Of a stretch of 64,000 bases of DNA, positions 1 to 51,080 are shown piece after piece. The stretch is taken from contig NW_027140861.1 in the NCBI RefSeq assembly GCF_036365525.1, positions 124,001 to 188,000 of the forward strand, read 5' to 3'. Position 1 is the first letter of the stretch. The number at the start of each line of letters is the position of its first letter. Source of the stretch: Heterodontus francisci. Its lineage: Eukaryota. The position numbers and the translations under genes are program-made. The notes under the pieces are model-generated. The model was not told the origin of the DNA. It did no database searches and saw only the letters and a list, made by a program, of their open reading frames with translations.

Positions 1-495
1 GAGAGAGAGAGAATGGGGGCAGTGAGAGGAGAGAGAGAGAGAGAATGGGGGCAGTGAGAGGAGAGAGAGAGAGAATGGGGGCAGTGAGAGGAGAGAGAGA
101 GAATGGGAGCAGTGAGAGGAGAGAGAGAGAATGGGAGCAGTGAGTGGAGAGAGAGAGAATGGGAGCAGTGAGTGGAGAGAGAGAGAATGGGAGCAGTGAG
201 TGGAGAGAGAGAGAATGGGAGCAGTGAGAGGAGAGAGAGAGAATGGGAGCAGTGAGAGGAGAGAGAGAGAATGGGAGCAGTGAGAGGAGAGAGAGAGAGA
301 ATGGGAGCAGTGAGAGGAGAGAGAGAGAATGGGGACAGTGAGAGGAGAGAGAGAGAGAATGGGAGCAGTGAGAGGAGAGAGAGAGAGAATGGGGGCAGTG
401 AGAGGAGAGAGAGAGAGAATGGGAGCAGTGAGAGGAGAGCGAGAGAGAATGGGAGCTGTGAGAGGAGAGAACGAGAATGAGACCTGTGAGAGGAG
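1..495 (+). repeat. Purine-rich ~30-bp minisatellite (GAGAGAGAGAATGGGAGCAGTGAGAG)
   Basis: About 15 visible tandem copies with variable GA runs; truncated by the window edge. Confidence 0.95.
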
Positions 496-811: not shown

Positions 812-1745
812 CTGTCCCTGGCGTTGCTGAGAATGTGTCTGGCCATGTTGTTGCTTCAAGCTCCATTCAGTTGGACCGTGCCGTACTATCTGTCTCTCGT
901 GGCAACGTTTGTACAGAAAAACACCTTTGATCACTAGTCCATCAGGCAGTATTCCACACATAACATCCTTGAGGCCCTGCGGGAAAAGGAGATGGTGGAC
1001 CCTGTCGGTTGGTTCTCTGTGCAGACTGTCAAATGCATTTCCAGATGGTGTCATTGCCAGAACTTCCAAACAAGCACATAGATATAGCAATCCTGGTGGT
1101 GAGAAGGGCCCTCCCTGTCAGTTCTGCATGGCCAGAGCCTGCCTGCCTGCCTGCCTCCGCACGCTGCCCTTGAGGTGACTGCGGTGGGGAAGAGACCATC
1201 ACCCACCTCTTTCTGGAATGTGCCTTTACAAAGCAGCTCTGGAAAGAGATGCAGTGGTTTTCCACAAAGTTGATCCTGAGCAGCTCTGTAATACAGGACA
1301 CATACTGAGATAAACATCAGCTGCTGCTGGAGGACCATCAACTCGCTGAAAGATGCTCTTTGGTCTGCACAAAACCTACTGGTCTTCCAGTGCAAAGAGC
1401 TGTCAATAACCGAGTGTTGCAGACTGGCACAGTCCGAGGTCCGGGCCTATGTATTGAGGGATGTATTGGGGCAGCTGCCACAAAGGCTCAATGGGAAAAT
1501 GCCACTATCTAAGGCCTTCTCACTATGGTAAGCCGAGAGGCTGGAACCCGTGGAAAACCCCTTGGGCTATATGCACCAGAGAATGATATCAAATGCAAAT
1601 GTACCTGTAATGGCAAGTGTTGTGAATCACCTCATATACTGTATTGAAATAAATTGGTCTGTATTGCATTTTATGCAATGTCAACTTTGACCTATATGTG
1701 TTGTACTTACAAATTTTGTGAACAGCATATTTTTGTGGTAAAAGA
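812..1745 (+). mobile_element. Tx1/L1-type LINE 3' fragment
   Basis: Encodes a decayed C-terminal Cys/His motif (CP.GDCGGEETITHLFLECAF) homologous to the 26.6-28.1 kb copy; AT-rich 3' end. Confidence 0.8.
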
Positions 1746-1751
1746 ACCCGA

Positions 1752-7700: not shown

Positions 7701-10700
7701 AAACAGAGAGTGATTGATAAAGGTGAGAATGAATACAGTGATACAGAGAGACACAAATAGAGGGAGATTGATAAAGGTGAGACTGAACACAGTGATACAG
7801 AGACACACAAACAGAGGGTGATTGATAAAGGTGAGACTGAATACAGTGATACAGAGAGACACAAACAGAGAGTGATTGATAAAGGTGAGAGTGAATGCAG
7901 TGATACAGAAAGACACAAACAGAGAGTGATTGATAAATGTGAGACTGAATACAGTGATACAGAGAGACACAAACAGAGAGTGATTGATAAAGGTGAGACT
8001 GAATACAGTGATACAGAGAGACACAAACAGAGAGTGATTGATAAAGGTGAGACTGAATAGAGTGATACAGAGAGACACAAACAGAGAGTGATTGATAAAG
8101 GTGAGACTGAATAGAGTGATACAGAGAGACACAAATAGAGGGTGATTGATAAAGGTGAGACTGAATACAGTGATACAGAGAGACACAAACAGAGGGTGAT
8201 TGATAAAGGTGAGACTGAATAGAGTGATACAGAGAGACACAAACAGAGAGTGATTGATAAAGGTGAGACTGAACACAGTGATACAGAGAGACACAAACAG
8301 AGGGTGATTGATAAAGGTGAGACTGAATACAGTGATACAGAGAGACACAAACAGAGAGTGATTGATAAAGGTGAGAATGAATACAGTGATACAGAGAGAC
8401 ACAAACAGAGGGTGATTGATAAAGGTGAGACTGAATAGAGTGATACAGAGAGACACAAACAGAGAGTGATCGATAAAGGTGAGAATGAATAGAGTGATAC
8501 AGAGAGACACAAACAGAGAGTGATTGATAAAGGTGAGACTGAATACAGTGATACAGAGAGACACAAACAGAGGGTGATTGATAAAGGTGAGACTTAATAC
8601 AGTGATACAGAGAGACACAAACAGAGAGTGATTGATAAAGGTGAGAATGAATACAGTGATACAGAGAGACACAAACAGAGAGTGATTGATAAAGGTGAGA
8701 ATGAATACAGTGATCCAGAGAGACACAAACAGAGAGTGATTGATAAAGGTGAGACTGAATAGAGTGATACAGAGAGACACAAACAGAGAGTGATTGATAA
8801 AGGTGAGACTGAATACAGTGATACAGAGAGACACAAACAGAGGGTGATTGATAAAGGTGAGACTGAATAGAGTGATACAGAGAGACACAAACAGAGAGTG
8901 ATTGATAAAGGTGAGACTGAACACAGTGATACAGAGAGACACAAACAGAGGGTGATTGATAAAGGTGAGACTGAATACAGTGATACAGAGAGACACAAAC
9001 AGAGAGTGATTGATAAAGGTGAGAATGAATACAGTGATACAGAGAGACACAAACAGAGGGTGATTGATAAAGGTGAGTCTGAATAGAGTGATACAGAGAG
9101 ACACAAACAGAGAGTGATTGATAAAGGTGAGAATGAATAGAGTGATACAGAGAGACACAAACAGAGAGTGATTGATAAAGGTGAGACTGAATACAGTGAT
9201 ACAGAGAGACACAAACAGAGGGTGATTGATAAAGGTGAGACTGAATACAGTGATACAGAGAGACACAAACAGAGAGTGATTGATAAAGGTGAGAATGAAT
9301 ACAGTGATCCAGAGAGACACAAACAGAGAGTGATTGATAAAGGTGAGACTGAATAGAGTGATACAGAGAGACACAAACAGAGAGTGATTGATAAAGGTGA
9401 GACTGAATACAGTGATACAGAGAGACACAAACAGAGGGTGATTGATAAAGGTGAGACTGAATACAGTGATACAGAGAGACACAAACAGAGAGTGATTGAT
9501 AAAGGTGAGAATGAATACAGTGATACAGAGAGACACAAATAGAGGAGATTGATAAAGGTGAGACTGAATACAGTGATACAGAGAGACACAAACAGAGAGT
9601 GATTGATAAAGGTGAGAATGAATACAGTGATACAGAGAGACACAAATAGAGAGTGATTGATAAAGGTGAGACTGAATACAGTGATACAGAGAGTCACAAA
9701 CAGAGAGTGATTGATAAAGGTGAGAATGAATACAGTGATACAGAGAGACACAAACAGAGGGTGATTGATAAAGGTGAGACTGAATAGAGTGATACAGAGA
9801 GACACAAACAGAGAGTGATTGATAAAGTTGAGAATGAATACAGTGATACAGAGGGACACAAACAGAGAGTGATTGATAAAGGTGAGACTGAATAGAGTGA
9901 TACAGAGAGACACAAACAGAGAGTGATTGATAAAGGTGAGAATGAATACAGTGATACAGAGAGACACAAACAGAGAGTGATTGATAAAGGTGAGACTGAA
10001 TACAGTGATACAGAGAGACACAAACAGAGGGTGATTGATAAAGGTGAGACTGAATAGAGTGATACAGAGAGACACAAACAGAGAGTGATTGATAAAGGTG
10101 AGAATGAATACAGTGATACAGAGAGACACAAACAGAGAGTGATTGATAAAGGTGAGACTGAATACAGTGATACAGAGAGACACAAACAGAGGGTGATTGA
10201 TAAAGGTGAGACTGAATAGAGTGATACAGAGAGACACAAACAGAGAGTGATTGATAAAGGTGAGACTGAATAGAGTGATACGGAGAGACACAAACAGAGA
10301 GTGATTGATAAAGGTGAGACTGAATACAGTGATACAGAGAGACACAAACAGAGAGTGATTGATAAAGGTGAGACTGAATACAGTGATACAGAGAGACACA
10401 AATAGAGGGTGATTGATAAAGGTGAGACTGAATACAGTGATACAGAGAGACACAAACAGAGGAGATTGATAAAGGTGAGACTTGAATACAGTGATACAGA
10501 GAGACACAAACAGAGAGTGATTGATAAAGGTGAGAGTGAATACAGTGATACAGAGAGACACAAATAGAGGGTGATTGATAAAGGTGAGACTGAATAGAGT
10601 GATACAGAGAGACACAAACAGAGAGTGATTGATAAAGGTGAGAGTGAATACAGTGATACAGAGAGACACAAATAGAGGGTGATTGATAAAGGTGAGACTG

Positions 10701-13700
10701 AATAGAGTGATACAGAGAGACACAAACAGAGAGTGATTGATAAAGGTGAGACTGAATACAGTGATACAGAGAGACACAAATAGAGGGTGATTGATAAAGG
10801 TGAGACTGAATAGAGTGATACAGAGAGACACAAACAGAGAGTGATTGATAAAGGTGAGAGTGAATACAATGATACAGAGAGACACAAACAGAGAGTGATT
10901 GATAAAGGTGAGACTGAATACAGTGATACAGAGAGACACAAACAGAGAGTAATTGATAAAGGTGAGACTGAATACAGTGATACAGAGAGACACAAAAAGA
11001 GAGTGATTGATAAAGGTGAGACTTGAATACAGTGATACAGAGAGACACAAACAGAGAGTGATTGATAAAGGTGAGACTGAATACAGTGATACAGAGAGAC
11101 ACAAATAGAGGGTGATTGATAAAGGTGAGACTGAATAGAGTGATACAGAGAGACACAAACAGAGAGTGATTGATAAAGGTGAGACTGAATACAGTGATAC
11201 AGAGAGACACAAACAGAGAGTGATTGATAAAGGTGAGAGTGAATACAGTGATACAGAGAGACACAAATAGAGGGTGATTGATAAAGGTGAGACTGAATAG
11301 AGTGATACAGAGAGACACAAACAGAGAGTGATTGATAAAGGTGAGACTGAATACAGTGATACAGAGAGACACAAAAAGAGAGTGATTGATAAAGGTGAGA
11401 CTTGAATACAGTGATACAGAGAGACACAAACAGAGGGTGATTGATAAAGGTGAGACTGAATAGAGTGATACAGAGAGACACAAACAGAGAGTGATTGATA
11501 AAGGTGAGACTGAATACAGTGATACAGAGAGACACAAACAGAGAGTGATTGATAAAGGTGAGACTGAATACAGTGATACAGAGAGACACAAACAGAGTGA
11601 TTGATAAAGGTGAGACTTGAATACAGTGATACAGAGAGACACAAATAGAGGGTGATTGATAAAGGTGAGACTTGAATACAGTGATACAGAGAGACGCAAA
11701 CAGAGAGTGATTTATAAAGGTGAGACTCGAATACAGTGATACAGAGAGACACAAACAGAGAGTGATTGATAAAGGTGAGACTTGAATACAGTGACACAGA
11801 GAGACACAAATAGAGGGTGATTGATAAAGGTGAGACTGAATACAGTGATACAGAGAGACACAAACAGAGAGTGATTGATAAAGGTGAGACTGAATACAGT
11901 GATACAGAGAGACACAAATAGAGGGTGATTGATAAAGGTGAGAGTGAATACAGTGATACAGAGAGACACAAACAGAGAGTGATTGATAAAGGTGAGACTG
12001 AATACAGTGATACAGAGAGACACAAATAGAGGGTGATTGATAAAGGTGAGAGTGAATACAGTGATACAGAGAGACACAAACAGAGAGTGATTGATAAAGG
12101 TGAGACTGAATACAGTGATACAGAGAGACACAAATAGAGGAGATTGATAAAGGTGAGACTGAATAGAGTGATACAGAGAGACACAAACAGAGAGTGATTG
12201 ATAAAGGTGAGACTGAATAGAGTGATACAGAGAGACACAAACAGAGAGTGATTGATAAAGGTGAGACTGAATAGAGTGATACAGAGAGACACAAACAGAG
12301 AGTGATTGATAAAGGTGAGACTGAATAGAGTGATACAGAGAGACACAAACAGAGAGTGATTGATAAAGGTGAGACTGAATAGAGTGATACAGAGAGACAC
12401 AAACAGAGAGTGATTGATAAAGGTGAGACTTGAATACAGTGATACAGAGAGACACAAACAGAGAGTGATTGATAAAGGTGAGACTCGAATACATTGATAC
12501 AGAGAGACACAAACAGAGAGTGATTGATAAAGGTGAGACTTGAATACAGTGACACAGAGAGACACAAATAGAGGGTGATTGATAAAGGTGAGACTGAATA
12601 GAGTGATACAGAGAGACACAAACAGAGAGTGATTGATAAAGGTGAGACTGAATACAGTGATACAGAGAGACACAAATAGAGGGTGATTGATAAAGGTGAG
12701 AGTGAATACAGTGATACAGAGAGACACAAACAGAGAGTGATTGATAAAGGTGAGACTGAATACAGTGATACAGAGAGACACAAATAGAGGGTGATTGATA
12801 AAGGTGAGACTGAATAGAGTGATACAGAGAGACACAAACAGAGAGTGATTGATAAAGGTGAGACTGAATACAGTGATACAGAGAGACACAAATAGAGGAG
12901 ATTGATAAAGGTGAGACTGAATAGAGTGATACAGAGAGACACAAACAGAGAGTGATTGATAAAGGTGAGACTGAATAGAGTGATACAGAGAGACACAAAC
13001 AGAGAGTGATTGATAAAGGTGAGACTGAATAGAGTGATACAGAGAGACACAAACAGAGAGTGATTGATAAAGGTGAGACTGAATAGAGTGATACAGAGAG
13101 ACACAAACAGAGAGTGATTGATAAAGGTGAGACTGAATACAGTGATACAGAGAGACACAAACAGAGTGATTGATAAAGGTGAGACTTGAATACAGTGATA
13201 CAGAGAGACACAAACAGAGAGTGATTGATAAAGGTGAGACTTGAATACAGTGATACAGAGAGACACAAACAGAGAGTGATTGATAAAGGTGAGACTTGAA
13301 TACAGTGATACAGAGAGACACAAACAGAGAGTGATTGATAAAGGTGAGACTTGAATACAGTGATACAGAGAGACACAAATAGAGGGTGATTGATAAAGGT
13401 GAGACTTGAATACAGTGATACAGAGAGACACAAACAGAGAGTGATTGATAAAGGTGAGACTTGAATACAGTGATACAGAGAGACACAAACAGAGAGTGAT
13501 TGATAAAGGTGAGACTTGAATACAGTGATACAGAGAGACACAAATAGAGAGTGATTGATAAAGGTGAGACTGAATACAGTGATACAGAGAGACACAAATA
13601 GAGGAGATTGATAAAGGTGAGAATGAATACAGTGATACAGAGAGACACAAACAGAGGGGATTGATAAAGGTGAGACTGAATACAGTGATACAGAGAGACA

Positions 13701-16605
13701 CAAATAGAGGGTGATTGATAAAGGTGAGACTGAATACAGTGATACAGAGAGACACAAACAGAGAGTGATTGATAAAGGTGAGACTGAATACAGTGATACA
13801 GAGAGACACAAATAGAGGGTGATTGATAAAGGTGAGACTGAATACAGTGATACAGAGAGACACAAATAGAGGAGATTGAGAAAGGTGAGAGTGAATACAG
13901 TGATACAGAGAGACACAAATAGAGGAGATTGATAAAGGTGAGAATGAATACAGTGATACAGAGACACACAAACAGAGAGTGATTGATAAAGGTGAGACTG
14001 AATAGAGTGATACAGAGAGACACAAACAGAGAGTGATTGATAAAGGTGAGACTGAATACAGTGATACAGAGAGACACAAATAGAGGAGATTGATAAAGGT
14101 GAGAATGAATACAGTGATACAGAGAGACACAAACAGAGAGTGATTGATAAAGGTGAGAATGAATCCAGTGATACAGAGTGAGACGCACAAACAGAGGGTG
14201 ATTGATAAAGGTGAGACTGAATACAGTGATACAGTGTGAGACACAAATAGAGGGTGATTGATAAAGATGAGACTGAATACAGTGATACAGAGAGACACAA
14301 ACAGAGGAGATTGATAAAGGTGAGACTGAATGCAGTGATACAGAAAGACACAAACAGAGGAGATTGATAAAGGTGAGACTGAATACAGTGATACAGTGTG
14401 AGACACAAACAGAGAGTGATTGATAAAGGTGAGACTGAATACAGTGATACAGAGAGACACAAAAAGAGGGTGATTGATAAAGGTGAGACTGAATACAGTG
14501 ATACAGAGAGACACAAACAGAGAGTGATTGATAAAGGTGAGACTGAATACAGTGATACAGAGAGACACAAACAGAGAGTGATTGATAAAGGTGAGAATGA
14601 ATACAGTGATACAGATTTGGACGCACAAACAGAGGGTGATTGATAAAGGTGAGAATGAATAGAGTGATACAGAGAGACACAAACAGAGGGGATTGATAAA
14701 GGTGAGCTTGAATACAGTGATACAGAGAGACACAAACAGAGGGGATTGATAAAGGTGAGACTGAATACAGTGATACAGAGAGTCACAAACAGAGGAGATT
14801 GATAAAGGTGAGACTGAATACAGTGATACAGAGAGACACAAACAGAGAGTGATTGATAAAGGTGAGACTGAATACAGTGATACAGAGAGACACAAACAGA
14901 GAGTGATTGATAAAGGTGAGAATGAATACAGTGATACAGATTTGGACGCACAAACAGAGGGTGATTGATAAAGGTGAGAATGAATAGAGTGATACAGAGA
15001 GACACAAACAGAGGGGATTGATAAAGGTGAGCCTGAATACAGTGATACAGAGAGACACAAACAGAGGGGATTGATAAAGGTGAGACTGAATACAGTGATA
15101 CAGAGTGAGACACACAAACAGAGGGTGATTGATAAAGGTGAGACAGAATACAGTGATACAGAGTGAGACACAAATAGAGAGTGATTGATAAAGGTGAGAC
15201 TGAATACAGTGATACAGAGAGTCACAAACAGAGGAGATTGATAAAGGTGAGACTGAATACAGTGATACAGAGAGTCACAAACAGAGGAGATTGATAAAGG
15301 TGAGACTGAATACAGTGATACAGAGAGTCACAAACAGAGAGTGATTGATAAAGGTGAGACTGAATACAGTGATACAGAGTGAGACGCACAAACAGAGGGT
15401 GATTGATAAAGGTGAGTATGAATACAGTGATACAGAGTGAGACAAACAGAGGAGATTGATAAAGGTGAGACTGAATACAGTGTGAGACACACAAACAGAG
15501 GGTGATTGATAAAGGTGAGACAGAATACAGTGATACAGAGTGAGACACAAATAGAGAGTGATTGATAAAGGTGAGACTGAATACAGTGATACAGAGAGTC
15601 ACAAACAGAGGAAATTGATAAAAGTGAGACTGAATACAGTGATACAGAGAGTCACAAACAGAGGAGATTGATAAAGGTGAGACTGAATACAGTGATACAG
15701 AGAGACACAAACAGAGAGTGATTGATAAAGGTGAGACTGAATACAGTGATACAGAGAGACACAAACAGAGAGTGATTGATAAAGGTGAGAATGAATACAG
15801 TGATACAGATTTGGACGCACAAACAGAGGGTGATTGATAAAGGTGAGAATGAATAGAGTGATACAGAGAGACACAAACAGAGGGGATTGATAAAGGTGAG
15901 CCTGAATACAGTGATACAGAGAGACACAAACAGAGGGTGATTGATAAAGGTGAGACTGAATACAGTGATACAGAGAGTCACAAACAGAGGAGATTGATAA
16001 AGGTGAGACTGAATACAGTGATACAGAGAGTCACAAACAGAGGAGATTGATAAAGGTGAGACTGAATAGAGTGATACAGAGAGTCACAAACAGAGAGTGA
16101 TTGATAAAGGTGAGACTGAATACATTGATACAGAGTGAGACGCACAAACAGAGGGTGATTGATAAAGGTGAGTATGAATACAGTGATACAGAGTGAGACA
16201 AACAGAGGAGATTGATAAAGGTGAGACTGAATACAGTGATCCAGAGAGACACAAACAGAGGGTGATTGATAAAGGTGAGACAGAATACAGTGATACAGAG
16301 TGAGACACAAATAGAGAGTGATTGATAAAGGTGAGACTGAATACAGTGATACAGAGAGACACAAACAGAGGAGATTGATAAAGGTGAGCCTGAATACAGT
16401 GATACAGAGAGACACAAACAGAGGGGATTGATAAAGGTGAGACTGAATACAGTGATACAGAGTGAGACGCACAAACAGAGGGTGATTGATAAAGGTGAGA
16501 CTGAATACAGTGATACAGTGTGAGACACACAAACAGAGGGTGATTGATAAAGGTGAGACAGAATACAGTGATACAGAGTGAGACACAAATAGAGGAGGTT
16601 GATAA
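1752..16605 (+). repeat. 54-bp satellite array (~275 units)
   Basis: Unit GTGATTGATAAAGGTGAGACTGAATACAGTGATACAGAGAGACACAAACAGAGA; homogeneous centre, more diverged right end. Confidence 0.99.
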
Positions 16606-16854
16606 ATGTGTATATATTGTAAAGTGCAGGGACATGGAATGGGATGGGTTTATTCCAGGTGACCTTGTACAGGGTAGGAAAGGAATCTGTGCTGTTTTGT
16701 GTAGAACAAATTGAGAATGAACAGGATCAGTAAAAGGAAATGATTCCACATGAACCCAGAGTGGGACAGGCAGACACAGCCCGAATCTCACTGTATAAAA
16801 CACAAGGACAAACACGCACAACAGAGGGACAGACAGACACAACACAAATCTCAC

Positions 16855-16950: not shown

Positions 16951-17153
16951 CTGAGAGAGAAAAAACAGAAGGGGGAGAAAGGGAATGAACAATAAAAAGG
17001 CAAGCCGCCAGCTTTTTATGAATTAACAGTGGTTTGTGTTAGAACCTCACATTTACTTTCAATGGGAGTGAAGGTGGGAGGCCAGCTTCTGCTGTGATTC
17101 TCGGGTGCATTTTATTTTGACTCGTGCAGTTAGCAAGTGTCATTATAATGCTA

Positions 17154-17292
17154 AAATAAAAGCAAAATACTGCAGATGCTGAAAATCTGAAATGAAAACA
17201 AAAATTGCTGGAAATTCTCAGCAGGTCTGGCAGCATCTGTGGAGAGAGAAGCAGAGTTAATGTTTCAGGTCAGTGACCTTTCATCAGAACAC
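17154..17292 (-). mobile_element. Short hammerhead-motif retroelement (Penelope-like derived), copy A
   Basis: Minus strand reads GTT-CTGATGA-A-AGGTC-ACT-GACCT-GAAACATT-AAC. Flanked by a 9-bp direct repeat ATAATGCTA (17145-17153, 17293-17301). Confidence 0.7.
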
Positions 17293-17750
17293 ATAATGCT
17301 ACCTGCCTGCTGAGCATTTCCACCATTTTATCTTGATATTAATCTCTTGTTGGTTTAATTCTTATAATCATGGAAATTCTGTCAGTTGGCCGAACTAAAA
17401 TCTTCCACCATATATATAAATCCCTTGCATTGTTAAATAACACTGAAACTTGGCTGGATTTGAACTGTTCTGTAAAATAATCCCAAGAATGTCACTTTCC
17501 AGTGAGTACTAGGTAATAGAATTAGAGGGAAAGGAACTCATCTGTTTAAAGGATGTTTAAAAAAAAAATGTAACCTGCTTTGAGTCTGTTAAACGTCTGA
17601 AATGGTGTGACTGCTGTTAATACTGATTTAGCCAACAGCTGTTTGTATTGGATATGAACTGATTGCGTGTGTAGACCATTAAGAAACAATATTTAATGAC
17701 ATTAAAAGCAGTTCAGTTGGCATCATTAGAATGTTAGCAGATCCGCACAG

Positions 17751-19168: not shown

Positions 19169-21494
19169 CTTTGTTTTATCTAGTTATCTCATTACTGTCT
19201 ATGTGTTAATTGCATATGAATTGTGTTTAATTATATGCAGGTGGAGGGCATTAATTAGGATTTCACTTGAGCACATGTAAAGAGACACTTACTGAAACTA
19301 TGGTTGAGTTAGGAGCTGTGTCCATGTAATGTTTGACTCTGTAAATAAATGTGAGATTGACTAAAGATTGGCTCCAGTGCTTTCCTTCACCAACTGGCTT
19401 CCTGGAATATAATATGGTAGCAGAGGATAGTTGCCTAAAGGTGAAGGTAGAAAAGCAAGAAAAAAAATGAGACAGAAGACTACAATCCTAATAGCCATTG
19501 TGAGAAATTACAGAAAGTGAGTGTAAATTATCTGGGTTTGATTACCCTCCAATGTTCTCAGAGTGAGCCATATAACCAGTGGAAGCATGAAGTGGATTGG
19601 TGGACATGGGTTATGCCCCTACCAAACAGGAAACAAGGTATGGCCTTGGCATTGTCAATTCTTACAAGAAGTAAAATCAGAAGAAAAGTATTTTGTGAGC
19701 AAAGTGCTCATCAGTTGAATACTGATGAAGGTTTGGATCTTCCATTAGAGTTCTTGGATGAAATCTACAAGAAATATCATCTATTAAATACCTATGAGGC
19801 ATGGTCAGAATTTGATAGATTTCAGAAGACAGATAGTTAGTCAATGGAAGAATATACCATGGATTCTAACAGACTGCATAAAGATTGAGGAAATTCAATT
19901 TAGAGATCCCTGGTTCAGTGCTAGCATTTAAATTGCTGGATTATACTAAGGTTGCATATGGATAGGCTCCTGGTTCTAAATGGTTTTTGGTTCTCAGAGA
20001 GAATCCTGTTGGATTAGATGTCTGCTGCCTTGAAAAAAATCCAGAGGAAACAGTCATTTGCTGCAGTCTTTGTCGAACAGATGGAATATTTTGCAGTGAC
20101 ACAAAGAATAGAAAACTCAATGATTCCCAGATTTGAAATGGTCCAGATATTGGATGCAGGCATACAAAGGAAGAATTACAGACAGGTGGAATGAGCATGA
20201 AAGCTACTTACATTCAATTAATGAATAAAAAATCTGGAATTGAGAGCTAGTCTCAGTAATGGTGCTATGAAACTATCATTGATTATTGCAAAAACCCATC
20301 TGGTTCACATATGTCCTCTACAGAATGAAATCTGTCATCCTTACCTGGTCTGGCCTACATGTGACCCACATGAGATTTGGCTACTACAGCAGAAGACAGA
20401 ATTGGAATAGCAATAATAGGTGAATCCCAGGAATGCCAAGGAACAGTTAATAAGTGTTTCAGGTGTGACTCAAAGTGTTGTTATGTGATGAACTGCCCAC
20501 AGCAAAGAGGCAGGGTCCTCGAAAAGGCATTTTTTTTTTTTATTCATTCATGGGATGTGGGCATCACTGGCAAGGCCAGCATTTGTTGCCAGTCCCTAAT
20601 TGCCCTTGAACTGAATGGCTTTCGAGGCCATTTCAGAGGGCATTTTAAGAGTCAATCACATTCCTGTGCGGCACATGTAGGCTCTGCCTCTCAAGGATTG
20701 GCCTTCACAGCCATCAGCAAAGGTGCACCAAAAGAAGACACTCCACCTAAATAGATTGTTTGCTCCGTGTCCATCATGTTTGATCGATGGAGTTTCCGGC
20801 TGGAGTAAGCCACTTTATCAGTCCTGATACAATCTCCAGTGACATACCTCTGCTGCTGAATAAAGCACAAATGAAACTTGACATGGAACATAACAAGGCA
20901 GTGGATCTGGAGTTTACCCAATCAGGACATTATTGTATCCCCCTAACACAACCTAATGTTTCACATCAGAGTATAAGACAAGAATTAATGGCATCAGGTG
21001 ATAAGAATCAGAGAGGAAAACAAACAAATTGTCTTAAAGTTACATAGACAATTTACACACTCTACTTGTCAATGGTTAAAAATCCTGTTAAAAGATGCTG
21101 GTGTGGTTGATGAAGGTTCTATGAGGTTAATAGAAGAGATTAGTGAGAATTGTGAAATCTGTAAAAAGTATCGAAGGACACTGCCGCGGCCTATTGCCAA
21201 CCTTCCATTGACAAGTGACTTTAACAAGGGAGTTGTCCTGGATCTAAAGGTGTGGGACAAAGACAGAAATATTTTTATTCTACATTTTATTGACCAGACA
21301 ATTTGATTTCGTCTTTTAATAATAATTCATAGCAAGGACAAAAGGGTGATTATAGATACAATCATGGAGAAATGGATAGGGACTGGACTTGGGGCACTGA
21401 CTGATAATGGAGGGGAATTTGCCAATGATGAGTTCAGACACATATGTGAAAAGATAAACATTATGGTCATGAATTCGACTGCCGAAAGTCCTAG

Positions 21495-21800
21495 TCTAGA
21501 ACTAGGGGTCACTGTTTTAAAATAAGGGGTCACCCATTTAAGACAAAGATGAGAATTTTTTTTTCTCTCAGAGGGTTGTGAGTCTTTGGAATTCTCCTCC
21601 TCAAAAAGTGATGGAAGCAGAGTCTTTTAATATTTTTAAGGCAGAGGTAGATTGATTCTTGATAAGCAAGGGGTGAAAGGTTATTGGGGGAAGGTGGGAA
21701 TGTGGAGTTGAGCTTACAATCAGATCAGCCATGATCTTATTGAATGGCGGAGTAGGCTCAAGGAGCCAGGTGGCCTACTCCTGCTCCTAATTTGTATGTT
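21495..21800 (+). mobile_element. CR1 3' end nested in the Copia integrase
   Basis: Typical CR1 3'UTR (gatcagccatgatcttattgaatggcggag...cctactcctgctcc) splits the integrase core. Confidence 0.85.
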
Positions 21801-22533
21801 CGTATATCCTTTCAGCAATGGACTCTGTGAAAGGAATTACACGGCAATCAATGAAATGCTGCTTAAAATCCAGATGATCAAGCAAACTGCAAGTTGGCAA
21901 CTGCTCTGGCATGGGCAGTTCATGCAAAGAATCCGTGTCAGATGGTTGGGGGATATAGTCCCTCTCAATTGGTCTATGGGCGAAATCTAAAATTGCTTTC
22001 TGTGCTGTGTGATAGTCCTCCTACACGAGAAGGTACGACAGTTAGTTCCATTTTTGCTGCACACTTGACTTCTTTACATGCAGGGAGACGGGCTTTCATC
22101 AAGACTGAGTTCTCTGAGAAAATTTGAAGAGCTGTGAGGCATCAAATAAGGCCATTTTAAACAGAATTTAATTCAGGAGGTTTGGTGTATTATAAAAGAG
22201 AGGGTCATAGGAAATGGAAATGCCCTGGTAATGTAATAGATCATGATGGGAAGACACTACTTATCAAACATTTCAATCAAACTGTTAAGCTTCATTCTTC
22301 ATGATTAGTCAGAGTTGATTACAAAATCTCAGAATCTGAGCAGCTGATAGAAGGAAACAAGGCACCTTGTACCTCAAATGCTCATGTGTTTTGTGAGAAG
22401 GTCCTGAGGAACAAAATACAGTGATCAAGGGCGGATACTGGTAACATGAGTGATCATGAAACACAGGACAGAGCTATTACATCCAAAGACCAATTGTCCA
22501 CAGTGGGTCCATGAGTGATGTATATTCCAGAGG

Positions 22534-22628
22534 TTCTGAAGAAAGGTCACTGACCTGAAACGTTAACTCTACTTCTCTCTCCACAGATGCTGCCAGACCT
22601 GCTGAGTATTTCCAGTGTTTCTCATGTT
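22534..22628 (+). mobile_element. Short hammerhead-motif retroelement, copy B
   Basis: GTT-CTGAAGA-A-AGGTC-ACT-GACCT-GAAACGTT-AAC; 13-bp TSD TATATTCCAGAGG at 22521-22533 and 22629-22641. Confidence 0.75.
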
Positions 22629-22979
22629 TATATTCCAGAGGGGTCTGGAAAATGAAGGGATGTGACAATTGGGGGGCATGCAGGAAAAGCTACGGCCAAG
22701 TTTAAATATTGGTTGAATGTTCAGGATGGTGGTCAAGAAGTGAGGTCCATGGACTGGCAGAATTGGGTGAATGAATGGAGAGTAAGAAAGCGCAGTGCAA
22801 GTTCTAAATGGGTTCAAAGGTGACTCTAGTCAGAAAACAGTCATATACCAGAGAAGGAGCATGCTATAGTGTGAGATAGAGATCTCACAGCAATAGTCCC
22901 AAAAAACATCAACGTGCAAGTACAAGCTATATCTTGAATAGATTACACAATGAAATGAGGGCTACAGAACAGTCTTGAG

Positions 22980-25740
22980 CAGAACCAGAAGCAGAAAAAG
23001 GAATGAAACCAGACGGACCACCCGGCATCGACCTCGGCACCAGAAACGACAACGGCAAACCCAACCCTGTCGACCCTGCAAAGTCCTCCTTACTAACATC
23101 TGGGGGCATGTGCCAAAGTTGGGAGAGCTGTCCCACAAACTAGTCAAGCAACTGCCTGGCATAGTCATACTCACGGAATCATACCTTACAGACAATGTCC
23201 CAGACACTGCAATCACTATCCCTGGGTATGTCCTGTCCCACTTCAGGACAGACCCATCAGAGGTGGTGGCACAGTGGTATACAGTTGGGAGGGAGTTGCC
23301 CTGGGAGTCCTCAACATTGAATCCGGACCCCATGAAGTCTCATGGCATCAGGTCAAACATGGGCAAGGTAACCTCCAACTGATTACCACCTACCGCCCTC
23401 CCTCAGCTGATGACTCAGTACTACACCATGTTGAACACCACTTGGAGGAATCACTGAGGGTGGCAAGGGCACAGAATGTACTCTGGGTGGGGGACTTCAA
23501 TGTCCATCACCAAGCGTGGCTCGGTAGCCCCACTACTGACCGAGCTGGCCGAGTCCTAAAGGACATAGCTGCTAGACTGGGTCTGTGGCAGGTGGTGGGG
23601 GAACCAACACAAGGGAAAAACCTACTTGACCTCGTCCTCACCAATCTGCCTGCTGCAAATGCTTCTGTCCATGACTGTATTGGTAGGAGTGACCACCACA
23701 CAGTCCTTGTGGAGATGAGGTCCCGCCTTCACATTGAGGATACTGTCCATCGTGTTGTGTGGCACGATCACCGTGCTAAATGGGATAGATTTTGAACAGA
23801 TCTAGCAATGCAAAACTGGGCATCCATGAGGCGCAGTGGGTCATCATCAGCAGCAGAATTGTGATCAACCACAATCTGTAACTTCATGGCCCGGCATATC
23901 CCCCACTCTACCATGACCATCAAGCCAGAAGACCAACCCTGGTTCAATGAAGAGTGCAGGAGGGCATGCCAGGAGCAGCACCAGGCATACCTCAAAATGA
24001 GGTGTCAACCTGGTGAAGCTACAACACAGGACTATCTGCGTGCCAAACTGTGTAAGCAGCATGCGATAGACAGAGCTAAGTGATCCCATAACCAACGGAT
24101 CAGATCTAAGCTCTGCAGTCCTGCTACATCCAGCTGTGAATGGTGGTGGACAATTAAACAACTAACTGGAGGAGGTGGCTCTTAAATATCCCCATCCTCA
24201 ATGTTGGGGGAGCCCAGCACATCAGTGCGAAAGATAAGGCTGAAGCATTTGCAACAATCTTCAGCCAGAAGTGCCGATGATCCATCTCGGCCTCCTCCTG
24301 AAGTCCCCAGCATTACAGATGCCTGATTTCAGCCAATTCGATTCACTCCGCGTGATATCAAGAAACGACTGAAGACACTGGATACTGCAAAGGCTATGGG
24401 CCCTGATAAAATTCCGGCAATAGTACTGAAGATCTGTGCTCCAGAACTTGCCGCGCGCCCTAGCCAAGCTGTTCCAGTACAGCTACAACACTGGCATCTA
24501 CCCTGCAATGTGGAAAATTGCCCAGGTATGTCCTGTACGCAAAAAGCAGGACAAATCCAACCCGGCCAATTACTGCCCCATCAGCCTACTCTCTATCATC
24601 AGTAATGTGATGGAAGGGGTCATCAACAGTGCCATCAAGCGGCACTTGCTAAGCAATAACCTGCCCAGTGACGCTCAATTTGGGTTGCGCCAGGGCCACT
24701 CAGCTCCTGACCTCATTAGAGCCTTGGTTCAAACATGGACAAAAGAGCTGAACTCAAAAGGTGAGGTGAGAGTGACTGCACTTGACATCAAGGCAGCATT
24801 TGACCGAGTATGGCATCAAGGAGCCCTAGCAAAACTGACGTCAATGGGAATCAGGGGGAAAACTCTCCGCTGGCTGGAGTAATACCTAGCGCAAAGGAAG
24901 ATGGTTGTGGTTGTTGGAGGTCAATCATCTGAGCTCCAGGACATCACTGCTGGAGTTCCTCAGGGTAGTGTCCTAGGCCCAACCATCTTTAGCTGCTTCA
25001 TCAATGATCTTCCTTCAATCATAAGGTCAGAAGTGGGGATGTTCGCTGATGATTACACAATGTTCAGCACCATTTGTGACTCCTCAGATACTGAAGCAGT
25101 CCGTGTAGAAATGCAGCAAGACCTGGACAATATCCAGGCTTGGGCTGATAAGTGGCAAGTAACATTCGCGAGTAACTCTCCTCCTGACTCCCCAAAGCCT
25201 GTCCACCATCTACAAGGCACAAGTCAGGAGTATGATGGAATACTCTCCACTTGTCTGGATGGGTGCAGCTCCAACAACACTGAAGAAGCTCGACACCATC
25301 CAGGACAAAGCAGCCCGCTTGATTGGCACCCCATCTACAAACATTCACTCCCTCCACCACAGACGCACAGTGGCAGCAGTGTGTACATTCTAGAAGATGC
25401 ACTGCAGCAATGCACCAAGGCTCCTTAGACAGCACCTTCCAAACCCGCGACCTCTACCACCTAGAAGGACAAGGGCAGCAAATACATAGGAACATCACCA
25501 CCTGCAAGTTCGCGTCCAAGTCACACACCATCCTGACTTGGAACTATATCGCCGTTCCTTCACTATCGCTGGGCCAAAATCCTGGAACTCGCTTCCTTTC
25601 AGTGGGTGTACCTACCCCACATGGACTGCAGCGGTTGAAGAAGGCAGCTCATCACCACCTTCTCAAGGGCAATTAGGGATGGGCAATAAATGCTGGCCTG
25701 GCCAGCGTCGCCCACATCCCATGAATGAATAAAAAAAAAG
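22980..25740 (+). mobile_element. APE-RT non-LTR retrotransposon (CR1/L2-related), near full ORF2, decayed
   Basis: Endonuclease motifs (VILTESYL, GDFNVHH, SDHH) and RT motifs (LDIKAAFDRVWH, GVPQGSVLGP, FADD); 3' tail ATGAATGAATAAAAAAA. Confidence 0.92.
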
Positions 25741-26585
25741 AAACCCTCATGACCATCAAGTGTTAGTGGCTGCCAATAAACTTTAGGATAAACTAATGAG
25801 AGGCAAAACAAAAGGAGTTCGAGAGTTGGAGAGAGTTTGGTGGTTATTCTGAGCTATCAGATAGGGGACAGCCAGCCTTGTGACATAAATGGATTTGTGC
25901 TGAAAAAGTGTTGCGGATGTGACTTATAAGGCTAAAGTGAGGCTTGTTGCTGGGTTTCTTTAAGAGGGACTGGGCAATACAGATGATGGAGTGGACTCTG
26001 CCACAGCTGGAAAAGTAATCTTAAACATCTGTTTCGAGCTCTTTTGGCCACATAGTCATTGGAGGGTCGGTCAATTGACATAAAAGCTGTATTTCTGCTG
26101 GGTATCACTTTTCAGCATGAAATGTTTCTGAAACTGACTAGAGGCAGCAGATACAGAAGGAAAACTATGGAAACTAAACAAATGCATCAATGGCCTGAAT
26201 GATGCTTCCAGGGTGTGGTATCTTTCAGTGAGATCTGTTTTGCTGAAAATAGCTTCTGTTCAACTAAAAGTAGATCCGCAATGTTTTATTTGTATCCTAA
26301 AGGAACACTTTCAGGAATCTTCATGATACGTGTTAATGATTTCTTATGGGGTGGTATTGGAGAATTTGAGAAATGTGTTCTTTCTCAGATTAGATTAGAA
26401 TTTAAAATTGGGAGTCAGACCAGTGGGACTTTTAAATATATTGGTTTAGATATGAAGCAAAGTAGATCTGAAGTAACTTTAATCACAATCCTAATAGAGA
26501 GGTGTTACTCCCATCCTGGTTAATTGGTCATCAGAGAAAGATGATGTTATATCTGAAGAAGAGACAGAACAATTTCAAAGCTGAT

Positions 26586-28080
26586 TTTTTTCCCAAAGAT
26601 ATGCTTTATTTATAAAATTTTTAAAAGTATACTGCAAAATTCAAATTGTATATTTCATCAAGTTCAGTTTCTTTCAATGCGGTCCAGGAGGTGCCTCACA
26701 ACTCTTGCCATACAGCCCGAGGGGTTTTACATGGGTTCCACCCTTGTTACACTTTGACAGTAGGACCTTACATAGTGGTCTTTCCCCATTGAGCCTTTGC
26801 TGCCCCAAGCTTTAATGCATCCCTCAACATGTAGTTCTATACCTTGGAATGTGCCAGTCTGCAACACTTGGTTGTGGACAACTCTTTGCACTGGAAGACC
26901 AGCATGTTTTGGGCAGATTAAAGTGAGTCTTTCATCTGGTTGATGATTATCTCAGTGTGCGTCCCTGGTAACAGCCTGTAGAGCACAGAGTCCTGCATTA
27001 TGGAGCTGCTCGGGATGAACCTCGACAAAATCCACTGCATCTCTTTGCAGACCTGCCTTGCAAATGCACATTCCAGAAGGAGGTGGGTGACAGTCTCTCC
27101 CCCACCACAGCCACCTCGAGGGCAGTGTGCAGAGGCGGTGAGACTCTGGCTATGCAGGAAGGATCTGATGGGGAGGGCCCTTGTCACCGCCAGCCAAGCT
27201 ATGTCTTGGTGCTTGTTTGAATGTTCTGGCAATGAGGCATTCTGCCAAATGACTCTGACAGTCTGCTCGGGGAACCATCCGACAGGATCCACCATCTCCT
27301 TTTCCCGCAGGGCCTTGAGGACGTTCTGTGCGGACCAATGCCTGATGGACTTCTGGTCAAAGATGTTTTTCAGTACAAACATTTCCACAAGGGAGAGGTG
27401 GTACTGGACAGTCCAACTGAATGGAGCGTTCCACGGTAACGTAGCCAGACCCATCCTTCACAATACTGAGGACAGACAGATCAACAGCACATAGTGACAG
27501 CTTGTGTCTGCATACCCGAGGTCTACGCACAGCTTGATGCAGCCACAGACAAAGGTGGCCATCAGGATGAGGGTGATAGGGTGATGTTGGGTACGTTTCC
27601 CCTCCCCCCCTTTATCTAGAGGTTTGAACATCATGTCCCTGCGGACGTGGTCCATTTTCAATCTCCAGGTAAAGTAGAAGAAAGCTCTGGTGACCGCCAT
27701 GACGCAGAAGTGGATATGGGCCGTCCTGTGCCATGTACAGCAACACTGAGAGCGCCTCACACCTGATGACCAGGTTCTTAGCCACAATATAGAGGGAGTG
27801 CCACTCCCACATGACCAGTTTCTGTTTCCCCATGGCTACTCACTCCTTCCGGTTTTTGTCCCCAGCCCCAGTCCCTCCGAGCCATATCCCCAGCACCTTC
27901 AGACAGTCTGACCTGACAGTGAAGGAGACAAAGGATCGATTGGCACAATTCCCAAAGAACTTGGCCTCTTTCTTGCCACAATTTACTTTGGCTCTAGAGG
28001 CCAGTTCAAAGTGGTCACAGATGCTCATCAGTGTGCGAACTGACAGCGGATCTGAGCAGAAGACGGCAACATCATCCATG
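26586..28080 (-). mobile_element. Tx1/L1-type LINE fragment inserted between Copia RT and RNaseH
   Basis: MDDVAVF RT motif and CPRGGCGGGETVTHLLLEC; poly-T at the left end; imperfect TSD CAAAGCT(T)GAT at 26577 and 28081. Confidence 0.88.
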
Positions 28081-29211
28081 CAAAGCTTGATCGGTCACTT
28101 GAACTGGTTGTGCACTCAGACTAGACCAGATTCTAGTTTTGATATGTTGGTGTTAAGTTCTATGATGAAACACCATAAAGTCAAAAAGGTTTGAAGGGCA
28201 AATAAAATGTTGAAAAAATAAATCTGGAGAAATGTGTACTTAAGTTCCCAACTTAGGTGACCCAAAGAACATACAATAGTTATTTTTAGTGAGGCTTCAC
28301 CTGCTAATCTTCCTGATTGGTATTAGAGTGCAGCTGGTTTCATGTTATTTCTAATGGGTGAAAATGGGAAATGTTGTCCTTTAGTTAGGAAGGTTAAGAA
28401 AATAAAGCAGGCCTATTAAAAGTACTTTAGTGCAGAAACACTGGCTTTTGTGAGGCAGTGGGATTCTATTTGACAAACATTTTAAGTAGGATTCTATACA
28501 ATGGACATACTGGGAGATAGTCTACCCATTGAATGCCATGTAGATAATCGTTCCTTTTGGGATAATGTACACTCTATGAAACATGTGAGTGAGAAAAGGA
28601 TATGGATTGACTTTACTGGCTTAAAACAAATGTTGGAGAGAAATGAAATCTCTAAAATTAAATGGGTAGCTGCAAGTCACCAACAATCTGAATTGTTTTA
28701 CAAAAAGAAATGCTTGTACAAAGAACTTGTTAGGGGTCTTTGGGCCGAAGGGCCTGTTTCGGTGCTGTATCTCTCTCTCTCTCTCTTTGACTCTCCATGT
28801 CCTCGAGGAGGAGCATCTGGCAATATAACGCTCTGTACTGAATATGGAAATTGTTTCTGATTTTCTTTTGAAATGTTATTTGTGCATATTAACTCTTAAG
28901 ATTTATTTAAAAAGAAAGAAGGGAATCTGTTAATTGTATATCAATTGTGTTTATTTATATGCAGGTGAAGGGCATTAATTGGAGTTTTATTTTAGCACAT
29001 ATAAAGTGACACTTACTGAAACTGTGTGGTCGAGTTAGGAGGTATATGCTTGTAATGTTTCACACTGTAAAGACTGAGTAAAGTTTGGGTCCCATATCAT
29101 CCTTCATCAGTTGGTTTTCTGCAATAGAACAAGAGAGACAGACACTGCATTAAGATTGTACAGTAAGCACCAGTTATAAAGTTCCAGTTGAAGGCCATTG
29201 AATGATCTGTT

Positions 29212-40170: not shown

Positions 40171-40755
40171 GTCAGTGATCTGTGATTGGTCAGTGGCCTG
40201 TCGATCCCTCCCTATAATCAGTGATCTGTGATTGGTCAGTGGCCTGTCGATCCCTCCCTATGCTCAGTGATTTGTGATTGGTCAGTGGCCTGTCGATCCC
40301 TCCCTGTGCTCAGTGATCTATGACCGGTCACCGGCCTGTCGATCCCTCCCTGTGTTCAGTGATCTGTGATTAGTTACGGCCTGTCGATCCCTCCCTGTGC
40401 TCAGTGATCTGTGATTGTTCATCTGCCTGTCGATCCCTCCCTGTGCTCAGTGATTCGTCACCAGCCTGTCGATCCCTCCCTGTGCTCAGTGATCTATGAT
40501 TGGTCACCGGCCTGTCGATCCCTCCCTGTGCTCAGTGATCTATGATTGGTCACCGGCCTGTCGATCCCTCCCTGTGCTCAGTGATCTATGATTGGTCACC
40601 TGCCTGTCGATCCCTCCCTGTGCTCAGTGATCTGTGATTGGTCACCGGCCTGTCGATCCCTCCCTGTGCTCAGTGATCTGTGATTGGTCACGGCCTGTCG
40701 ATCCCTCCCTGTGCTCAGTGATCTGTGATTGGTCACGGCCTGTCGATCCCTTCCC
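40171..40755 (+). repeat. 40-bp minisatellite (~14 units) in the putative class I 3'UTR
   Basis: Unit CTCAGTGATCTGTGATTGGTCACCGGCCTGTCGATCCCTCCCTGTG-like. Confidence 0.95.
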
Positions 40756-43383: not shown

Positions 43384-43542
43384 CTACAAAGATCAGAAAC
43401 AGAACTTCAGTTAACAAAAGCTCCCCCACCCACCCCTCACCCACACAAACTTACTGTAGTCATGGGGGGAATGACCAGCTTAACCTGAGCTCGCTTACAG
43501 GAGACTCTGCTCCTCACTCAACCCTTTACTCTGCATTCAGCC

Positions 43543-44280: not shown

Positions 44281-44438
44281 CACTTCCTGTTCCTCAGCCC
44301 CCTCACGCTCTGTACATCACTGGACTGTGTGTGCATTTCCCACATGTGTAGGAAAGTCTCTAATGCTTTGATATTTGTGCTTTAACATTTTAAAACTGCT
44401 GATACCAGAGAGTGACAGACCCTGCCCTCACTTCCTAC

Positions 44439-48050: not shown

Positions 48051-48061
48051 CAGATTTTTTT

Positions 48062-48399: not shown

Positions 48400-48489
48400 T
48401 TTAAATGAGGAAAGATGGGAGGAGGCTTGAGTGGTGCCACCAACATGGACTGGTTGGGCCGAATGGCCAGTTTCTCTACTATTTATCCT

Positions 48490-50840
48490 ATGTAATCTTT
48501 CAATCTTCATTGGATATAGGAGCGCTATTGGAGAACTGGAGGGTTGCTAATGTTATACCACTATTAAAGAAAGGGGAGAGGGATAAACCAGGAAATCACA
48601 GGCCAGTCAGCTGATAATTGGTAGTGGGGAAGTTATTCAAATCCAGTATCAAGGACAAAATTAACTTTCAATTGGAAAGGCATGGGTTAATCAAGAAGAG
48701 CCAGCATGGGTTTGTTAAAGGCAAATTGTGTCTGACCAACTTGATTGAATTCTTTGATGAGGTAACGAAGAAGATTGATCAACATAGTTCAATAGATATA
48801 AAAACAAGAAATGCTGGAACCACTCAGTAGGTCTGGCAGCATCTGTGAAAAGAGAAGCAGAGTTAATGTTTCGGGTCAGTGACCCTTCTTTGGAACTGAC
48901 AAATAGTTCAATAGATGTTGCACATATGGACTTTTGGAAGGCGTTCAGCAAAATGCTGCACAGGAGGCTTATTAAGGAGATGTCAGCCCATGGAACCAAG
49001 GGGATATGAAACTGGCTCAGTGACTGGAAGCAAAGGATGTTGGTAGATGTTTTTCAGATTGGGAAGTGGGGGGCAGTGTTGTTTCCCAAGGGTCAGTTTT
49101 GGGTCCATTACTCTTGGCAACATTTATAAATGGCTTAGGCTTAGGTGTAGGGAACAGCATTATAAAGTTTGCAAATGATAAAACTTTTGGCAAAGTAGTA
49201 TGGAGTAATGAGGATAGGATGAACATGGAGAGACAATATAGAATAAAGGGTACAATTCAGAAGGGGGGGCAGGAGCAGAGGGACCTATGTGTATATGTGC
49301 AAAAGTCATTGAAGGTGGCAGGACAGGTTGAAAGAGAGGTTAATAAAGCATACAGTATCCTGTGCTTTATTAGTAGGGGGGTAGAGTACAAGAGCAAGGA
49401 AGTTGAATTTATATAAGACACTAGTTTGGCCTCAGCTGGAGCATTGCATCCAGTTCTGGTGGCCGCACTTTAGGAAAGATGTGAAGGCATTGGAGAGATT
49501 ACAGAAAGGATTCACGAGAATGGTTCCAGGGATGAAGAACTTCAGTTATGAAGATAGATTGGAGAAGTTAAGACTGTTTTCCTTGGAGAAGAGAAGGCTG
49601 AGAGGTGATTTGATAGAGGTATTCAAAATCATGAGGGGTCTGAACAGAGTAGAGAGAGAGAAACTGTTCCCACTCGTGAAAGGATCGAGAATGAGAGGGC
49701 ACAGATTTCAAGTATTTGGTAAAGTTAAGCAAAAGTGACATGAGGAAAAGCTGTTTCATGCAGCGAGTGGTTATGGTTTAGAATGCACTGCCTGAGAACG
49801 TGGTGGAGGCAGGTTCAATTGAAGCATTCAAAAGGGAATTAGACAGTTATATGACAAGGAAGAATGTGCAGGGTTACAGGGAGAAGGCAGCTGAATGGAA
49901 CTGAGGAAATTGCTCTTTCAGAGAGCCAGTGTAGACAAGATGGACCGAATGGCCTTCTCCTGCACGGTAACGATTCTGTGATTCAATCATTCTAGGCTTC
50001 AGGGTGACAGGATGGTGAAATGGACAAAGACATGGCAGGTGAAGTTCAATGTAGGGAAGTGTGAAGTGATGCACTTTGGAAGGACTAATGTTGAAAGAAT
50101 GTAGATGATATTTTGAAAAGTGTAGATGAATAAAGAGACCTTGGTTTCCAAATGCACAAATCCTTAAAGATGGCACAGCAAGTTGATAAGGTGGTTGTAA
50201 AAGTATATGGGTTACATGGATTTATAAATCGAGGTACAGAATATAAAAGTAAAGAGATCATGCTAGAACTTTATAAATCACTGGTTAGGCCTCGGTTGGA
50301 GTATTGTGGACAATTCCGGCCACCACACTTCCGAAAAGATGTAAAGGCCTTAGAAAGGGCACAGAGGAGGTTTATCAGGATGTTAACAGAGATAACAGAC
50401 TATAGTTATGAGGAGAGGTTGGAAAAGTTAGGACTGTTCCCCTTGGAATAGAGAAGGTTAGGAGGTGACCTAATAGATTTTTTTCAAGATGATGAGCAGT
50501 TTTGCTAAGGTAAAGAGAGGAAAGTTATTCCCTCCGGTGAGTGGGTCAATAACCAGAGGTTATAGATTTAAAATCATTGGTAAAAGATAGAGAGGGGAAA
50601 TGAGGATTTTATTTTACTCAGCTGTCGGGATCTGGAATGTTCTACCTGAAAAGAAGTGGAAGCTGATTCCAGAAACAATTTTAAACAGGGTGTTGTACAG
50701 ATATTTGAGGATGATGAGCTGACACATTTAGGGACAAAAAGCAGACACATGGCACTAAGAATGACTACTCATCCCAAGAGCCAGCATAGGCTCGATGGGC
50801 CAAATGGCCTCCTACTGTGCTGTAGGGTTCTATGATTCAA
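48490..50840 (+). mobile_element. Tandem CR1 ORF2/3' fragments
   Basis: SQHGFVKGK.CLTNLIEFF, LYKTLVWPQLEHC, LYKSLVRPRLEYC. Confidence 0.9.
48798..48902 (-). mobile_element. Short hammerhead-motif retroelement, copy C, inserted in CR1
   Basis: AGTT-CCAAAGA-A-GGGTC-ACT-GACCC-GAAACATT-AACT; 14-bp TSD ATAGTTCAATAGAT at 48784-48797 and 48903-48916. Confidence 0.75.
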
Positions 50841-50857: not shown

Positions 50858-51080
50858 AAAATAAAACACTGCAGATGCTGGAAATCTGAAATAAAAACAT
50901 AACATTCTAGAAATACTCAGCAGGTCAGGCAGCATCTATGATGTGAGCAACAGAGTTAATGTTTCAGGTCAATACCACTTTGTCAGAATGGAGGTCACTG
51001 ATCTGAAAGGTTAACACTATTGCTCTCTGTACAGATGCTACCTGACCTGCTGAGTATTTCCAACATTGTCTGTTTTTATT
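50858..51080. repeat. Inverted pair of the same short element (hairpin)
   Basis: Arm 50890-50975 is the reverse complement of arm 50995-51080, with mismatches. Confidence 0.8.

Follow-up and report, generated by a model that had tools for sequence, protein, structure and literature searches.

The small hammerhead unit of the shark Heterodontus francisci is the pseudo-LTR of a Penelope-like retrotransposon and has a sharp 5' boundary

Dispersed minimal hammerhead ribozymes tied to truncated Penelope-like elements (PLEs) were reported in 2014 in animals including fishes, where the motif was found in Xena, Poseidon and Neptune (PMC4209133, accessible part). Solo hammerheads derived from truncated Penelope elements are already known. 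The zinc-finger-like linker of Neptune is also present in Nematis (PMC8557442), and in the Poseidon element of Anolis carolinensis (PAc) the 30–40-bp tail spans the interval from one internal priming site to the other (PMC11167929). Regeneration of the pseudo-LTR (pLTR) has been stated as unexplained (PMC2377424), and one of the proposals for it includes hammerhead cleavage and circular RNA (PMC4209133).

The window analysed here is a 64-kb stretch of H. francisci DNA, and five copies of one pLTR family, designated A to E, are located in it (Table 1), which corresponds to the genome-average density. Positions in the unit are numbered from C3 of the hammerhead core, taken as 0 (22536 in copy B), and the cleavage is predicted between +28 and +29. 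The motif of copy B reads GTT-CTGAAGA-A-AGGTC-ACT-GACCT-GAAA-CG-T-T-AAC and consists of a helix I of 3 bp, the CUGAAGA core, an extra A, a helix II of 5 bp with an ACU loop, GAAA, and the ACGU palindrome. This motif and its 13-bp target-site duplication (TSD) inside a Copia element are as given in the initial annotation, and the assignment to minimal type I hammerheads of the Penelope kind holds. Copies A and C were likewise confirmed as homologous, each a separate insertion with its own TSD: A shares 95% identity with B over 83 nt and C 84% over 101 nt, while B is 86% identical to the natural full-length copy L062. Two 3' ends are preferred in the family; B and C terminate at the first and A at the second. 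The core of A is intact, that of C is broken (CCAAAGA), and as C has lost G5 and both A and C possess ACAT instead of ACGT, a typical CpG decay, copy B represents the sole intact motif in the window. The head-to-head pair D/E (50863-51080) has no TSD around it, the longest word common to its flanks being 5 nt. Homology and TSDs are not due to chance, because the window copies match each other with blastn E values of 1e-18 to 1e-34 and TSDs exceed those of shuffled flank pairs. The Rfam scan of the window that had been proposed as a check gave no hammerhead at E ≤ 5, its six weak matches being all unrelated.

Table 1. Members of the hammerhead family in the window, their duplications and the host of copy B (TSD, target-site duplication; pLTR, pseudo-LTR)
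Feature	Coordinates	Strand	Remarks
Copy A	17154..17292	-	-3 to +133, two added 5' bases, ~37-nt tail included
TSD of copy A	17145-17153 / 17293-17301		9 bp
Older same-family fragment adjoining copy A	17296..17329	+ (opposite to A)	35-nt; 83%, E 5e-4
Host of copy B	19201..29129	+	Decayed Copia-order LTR element; target only, outside the unit
Left TSD of copy B	22521..22533	+	13 bp; final G common to TSD and element position -3
Minimal type I hammerhead motif of copy B	22533..22567	+	Predicted cleavage after 22564
Copy B	22534..22628	+	pLTR stub, ~-3 to +92; 3' end is the first of two preferred ends
Right TSD of copy B	22629..22641	+	13 bp direct repeat
Copy C	48798..48902	-	~-9 to +95; youngest subfamily, 94% to L062
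TSD of copy C	48784-48797 / 48903-48916		14 bp
Copy D	50863..50989	-	Old decayed arm of head-to-head pair, with tail
Copy E	50992..51080	+	Second arm of head-to-head pair, without tail

The host of copy B is bounded by an LTR-like pair (19201-19412 / 28925-29129) and shows the motif order integrase, RT, RNase H, copy B being inserted between the integrase-like and RT-like motifs. Copia elements are uncommon in vertebrates; the same host is also broken by LINE-like insertions at ~22950-25740 and ~26700-27480. Copies C, D and E lie between the alpha-3 exon of an MHC class I gene (Pfam C1-set) and an exon of transmembrane-like character identified from its translation only, which agrees with the MHC class I setting recognized before. 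This gene occupies 44470-60942 of the minus strand, with an alpha-1 exon matching Pfam MHC_I (E 1e-20), the alpha-3 exon at ~52500-52778 and the transmembrane-like exon near 44500. Minisatellite arrays are present in and upstream of the gene (40172-40754, 43541-44316, 60852-64000), in addition to a satellite of ~15 kb with ~54-bp period and ~94% self-identity at 1744-16610. The region of copy A has 9 further occurrences, 7 of which are located on contig C29 (57-63 Mb), and this recurrence suggests a large duplicated cluster. ORF pieces of the parent element were absent from the 64-kb window.

Genome-wide, the small unit is the hammerhead-bearing pLTR of an autonomous 3.3-kb PLE. The search with copy A yielded 30 loci, ten of which are its own locus and segmental duplicates (L002-L010, with identical flanks); neither these nor L020-L022, which represent a single event, were counted as independent insertions. 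Six of the 18 independent loci share 120-900 nt upstream, leading into a GIY-YIG frame. The first look for the GIY-YIG domain gave 99,076 candidates, and among 150 scored, five were located in open frames of 920-924 codons (L061-L065), each of which has the unit on both sides, 10 nt ahead of the frame and ~370-390 nt behind it. Whole-element tandem arrays of 3291 bp also occur in the genome. The parent ORF is a single long frame with RT followed by GIY-YIG endonuclease; its Pfam matches (RVT_1, E 4.7e-6; GIY-YIG, E 0.0019) are both below the Pfam cut-off, and its 1707 homologues at E ≤ 1e-20 carry RVT_1 and in part GIY-YIG, the nearest named proteins being those of bamboo shark (66-70%). The linker CNRRRCNTC, a zinc-finger-like CX2-5CxxC sequence between RT and endonuclease, is found in four of the five long frames and is partly deleted in L064, and a search of solved structures with the parent ORF gave no match. 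The family also possesses the hallmarks of endonuclease-bearing (EN+) PLEs, namely pLTRs from partial tandems, inverted 5' pieces and an optional 30–40-bp tail. Placed by features and not by tree, the parent is an EN+ PLE of the Neptune/Nematis type.

Several observations concern particular members of this element. The whole 3291-bp element is repeated head to tail in arrays at G000:C204:10718649-10728835 and on C748 (L042-L047, L068, L069), and the same 3' flank in C204, C873, C940 and C1063 points to amplification inside larger duplicated blocks. The youngest and most recently active subfamily (L061-L075), which includes the intact ORFs, combines a CCGAAGA core (U4C) with a canonical G10.1-C11.1 pair; U4C lowers hammerhead activity in vitro and is tolerated in a viroid (PMC3088659, accessible part). 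In L063 (2519-2608) an ATG at +51 of the pLTR directly follows a strong acceptor-like CAG and starts a frame of 30 codons, with its stop 8 codons before the main ATG (+168) in the same frame, and another acceptor-like AG is present at +165; such an arrangement may possibly serve translational or splicing control, and no splice joint at these sites was found in assembled contigs. The pair L234/L235 (G000:C1:11610550-11611129), in which two same-strand repeats are 500 bp apart and the first begins at -1 and runs into the ORF side, is probably an internally deleted element.

Pairing in the hammerhead was counted in 80 of 91 copies together with copy B, 11 being left out as offset or beginning at or after -2. 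In the 69 distinct copies helix pairing is kept in 94% of cells, and the pair 10.1-11.1 is GU in 30, AU in 23 and GC in 13 of them. Double-sided helix changes are limited to two cells, and the covariation score was equalled in 10 of 500 shuffles, the sequences being related. The core is intact in 29 of 47 short versus 39 of 44 long copies; selection on the hammerheads of stubs was considered and is not seen in these figures, in which an age bias is possible. The lowest-energy homodimer predicted for copy B shows a non-catalytic pairing instead of the active fold.

The anatomy of the copies was studied in the first 100 matches of an internal 35-mer on contig C1. The independent mobility that the initial annotation attributed to the tiny unit is not supported: although picked only by this 35-mer, 28 of the 100 copies extend at least 100 nt upstream into the parent element, of which the unit is the pLTR. 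Short copies amount to 68 of 100, lack an upstream TATA-like box, and in 17 of 68 cases have an inverted 5' partner. The 3' ends form two groups, at about +92..107 and +129..135, which are ~35-37 nt apart; in two stubs, L276 and L284, the 3' bases belong to the ORF side of the repeat. TSDs of at least 10 nt were found in 18 of 51 solo short copies versus 3 of 200 shuffled flank pairs, and in 13 of 35 versus 1 of 300 shuffled in a second test whose sample shares 30 loci, L158-L187, with the 51-copy test. Their lengths are ~9-19 bp with a median of about 14 bp, and they mostly abut the element start with 0-3 extra bases between, which leaves no room for an upstream exon.

The abundance of the family is considerable. 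The internal 35-mer has 26,713 exact matches genome-wide, and the genome-wide count proposed earlier as a check gave 18,774 exact CUGANGA motifs, or 59,330 when U4C is allowed, while reversed-sequence controls for these patterns gave 0. Eighty evenly spaced 10-kb stretches (790 of 800 kb with letters) contained 50 deduplicated copies, i.e., 63 per Mb, which extrapolates to ~380,000 copies in the 6.0-Gb genome; ~2.4% of the sampled bases match the family. The family itself is ordinary, being another hammerhead-bearing PLE, though a very large one.

The 5' ends are distributed in a non-random manner, and this is the point added to the earlier knowledge of solo PLE hammerheads. In the 100-copy sample 28 starts are at -100 or beyond, 4 at -99..-30, 5 at -29..-10, 43 at -9..+4 and 20 at +5..+39; only 3 of the last group fall at +25..+33 around the cleavage site, where no peak of 5' ends is observed. 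In the random sample 16 of 50 copies start at -7..-2 and none at -54..-8. Exact patterns extended stepwise upstream match genome-wide 59,330 (-2), 53,765 (-3), 44,818 (-4), 35,028 (-5) and 25,793 (-9) times, which corresponds to a loss of 9.4% at -3, 16.6% at -4, 21.8% at -5 and then 7.4% per base to -9, compared with a baseline of 2.2% per base from -9 to -18 (27,260 of 33,333 kept). According to the excess over this baseline ~49% of the 59,330 hammerhead-intact copies begin at -2..-8. The boundary is sharp, with a peak at -3/-4, and is located at an initiator-like motif, YCAGTTC with A at -4, which fits the initiator consensus; TTAWAA is present 29 nt upstream in the upstream repeat. Of 23 upstream sequences, only about half have TATAA as the TATA-like box and most others TAAAA, the sampling filter having partly selected for a TATA-like region. 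Among 11 copies entering the ORF two start near the boundary (full-length L062 at -4 and L234 at -1) and six have long upstream repeats. Two possible traces of the 5' end were rejected: a non-templated T before G(-3), as T makes 3,446 of 8,947 non-A bases (39%) without excess, and a cap-derived extra G before A(-4), which is not evident (2 of 13 by eye).

Starting from what is directly observed, namely the parent element, both groups of 3' ends, the TSDs, the head-to-head pairs and the 5' boundary, it appears reasonably probable that the stubs are abortive cDNAs made by the element's own RT-endonuclease running off the 5' end of uncleaved RNA; we infer that the 5' boundary corresponds to this RNA end. 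Transcription by Pol II would begin near A(-4) of YCAGTTC, with the TATA-like TTAWAA of the upstream repeat 29 nt before it, the endonuclease would nick AT-rich DNA, and the RT would prime inside the RNA at +97 or +131. With priming in the 5' repeat the RNA end would be reached after 100-135 nt, and about half the time the short cDNA would be inserted in the target unchanged, leaving a dead stub that lacks a promoter, or a head-to-head pair if both target strands were primed. Otherwise transfer of the cDNA to the 3' repeat, or priming there, would result in long copies and tandems, and the jump would rebuild the pLTR without duplicating the unit, as in the seamless tandems; hammerhead cleavage would not be needed for the run-off route. 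In LTR retroelements the minus-strand strong-stop DNA, a short cDNA copied from the 5' repeat of the RNA, has to be transferred to the 3' repeat. By analogy, and tentatively, the stubs can be seen as integrated strong-stop products, in which case capped uncleaved RNA would start four bases before the hammerhead, pLTR and promoter would be rebuilt by a homologous jump, and about half of all events would fail at this jump, so that stubs of the order of 100,000 would remain. If true, the positions of the start site and of both priming sites could be read from the stubs to the base.

That the short copies are by-products of the autonomous element, by whatever route, is held with high confidence. 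Their number (68 of 100), fairly defined ends and TSDs also suit an independent SINE or retrozyme, a 95–140-nt unit amplified via hammerhead-processed or circular RNA, and animal non-LTR retrozymes are described as derived from PLE pLTRs, with one chondrichthyan genome (bioRxiv 10.64898/2026.07.22.740005, accessible part); such an origin is nevertheless highly improbable here. Judged by five diagnostic columns only, in 91 copies (47 short, 44 long), the five main haplotypes are common to short and long copies (5/13, 10/7, 5/9, 9/3 and 6/2, short/long), and a haplotype specific to short copies was not found among them. A same-strand neighbour within 600 nt accompanies 1 of 212 sampled matches, in a sample that leaves rare arrays elsewhere possible, and no tandem array of the short unit with two or more hammerheads was met among these 212. 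Given the pLTR identity, the common haplotypes and the scarcity of neighbours, the copies show no sign of a separate SINE or tandem retrozyme; further points against it are the core being better kept in long than in short copies, the lack of a boundary at the cleavage site and stubs without the upstream promoter-like region. Of the abundant hammerhead SINE or retrozyme family proposed for cartilaginous fish, the abundance stands, and the SINE or retrozyme status is not supported in this sample; the feature is real, but it is not a new retrozyme.

For the boundary itself, ordinary 5' truncation of copies all primed in the 3' repeat, with a stop at -3/-4 caused by structure, bound protein or microhomology, is a rather unlikely explanation. 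PLE insertions are heavily 5'-truncated (PMC8557442, PMC8969392), -4 coincides with the 5' edge of helix I, TSD microhomology is common at 5' junctions and 20 of 100 copies have their start within the motif; however, helix I would already be unwound by the RT on reaching -4, about six bases suffice for the per-base loss to drop from 22% to 2.2%, and the ORF-side 3' bases of L276 and L284 need a repeat continuing towards the ORF. A boundary at -3/-2 produced by splicing to the CAG acceptor or by other processing, so that stubs copy processed RNA, is improbable, even though nearly all of the 23 upstream sequences contain a branch-like CTAAY followed by pyrimidines and CAG at -17..-3 and the intron end of D. 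virilis Penelope maps to helix I (PMC4209133): no common extra sequence is found between TSD and element start, and neither a GT..AG joint nor a circle joint is present among the contig matches listed (15 of 175; 15 of 20), a weak argument, as assembled contigs cannot show RNA ends. The run-off of uncleaved RNA agrees with the PAc data, where internal priming at two sites defines the tail, both strands are primed and unprocessed RNA is the substrate (PMC11167929), and with the TATA plus Inr-like motif of the rotifer pLTR (PMC3846280). In its favour count also the TSDs abutting the element start, the starts of L062 and L234, the ORF-side bases of L276 and L284 and the haplotypes common to short and long copies. 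Against it count the CAG at -5..-3, which with the branch-like CTAAY also reads as a putative splice acceptor, the weak and partly filter-selected TATA-Inr evidence, the cap-derived G not being evident and the long upstream repeats of six of the 11 ORF-entering copies. The sizes of the ladder steps, which also fit exon-end base frequencies, count against it too. A different layout is described for D. virilis Penelope, with a TATA-less internal promoter and a start 46 nt before an intron (PMC2377424). In circle models the special position is the cleavage site, while in this genome -4 is marked and +29 is not, a pattern in favour of an uncleaved template.

The 5' boundary and the absence of a mark at the cleavage site matter more than the family itself. 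The case is also a caution that solo hammerheads of constant size, flanked by TSDs, can mimic a SINE without being one. In the open-access literature no earlier report of a fixed 5' boundary or of a strand-transfer model for PLEs was found.

In comparison with the minimal hammerheads of metazoan PLE pLTRs (PMC4209133) the shark family is similar in the absence of helix III with a palindromic 15.2-16.2, the extra base between A9 and 10.1, the short helix I, and the presence of thousands of single motifs, which the authors of that study related to truncated PLEs. It differs in the number of exact intact motifs (59,330 here versus 4,000-9,000 in coelacanth and Xenopus, counted by different search methods), in the 10.1-11.1 pair being A-U, G-U or G-C, in U4C of the youngest subfamily and in the measured sharp 5' boundary. 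With the EN+ PLEs Neptune and Nematis (PMC8557442) it shares one frame of RT then GIY-YIG, the C-x4-C-xx-C linker, partial tandems, inverted 5' pieces, the optional 30–40-bp tail and 5' truncation, while the shark TSDs are clear, their median length being about 14 bp, and the flanks that were inspected gave no sign of microsatellite targeting. Animal non-LTR retrozymes are similarly non-coding, PLE-pLTR-related and equipped with type I hammerheads, but according to the accessible parts of the sources they are defined by tandem units with at least two hammerheads and by circular RNA (PMC7761336; bioRxiv 10.64898/2026.07.22.740005), and such tandem units were not met in the shark sample. PAc resembles the shark family in two internal priming sites defining the tail, in priming of both strands and in cleavage being dispensable for insertion (Frangieh et al. 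2024, PMC11167929); its priming sites are inside the ORF, whereas both shark 3' ends precede the first in-frame ATG (+168), and genomic stubs with a fixed 5' end are not described for PAc in the accessible part of that report.

The likeness to strong-stop DNA, which is of analogy only, consists in a short cDNA of the RNA 5' repeat. The proposed shark cDNA would be primed by nicked target DNA and not by tRNA, and a failed jump would therefore leave a genomic stub.
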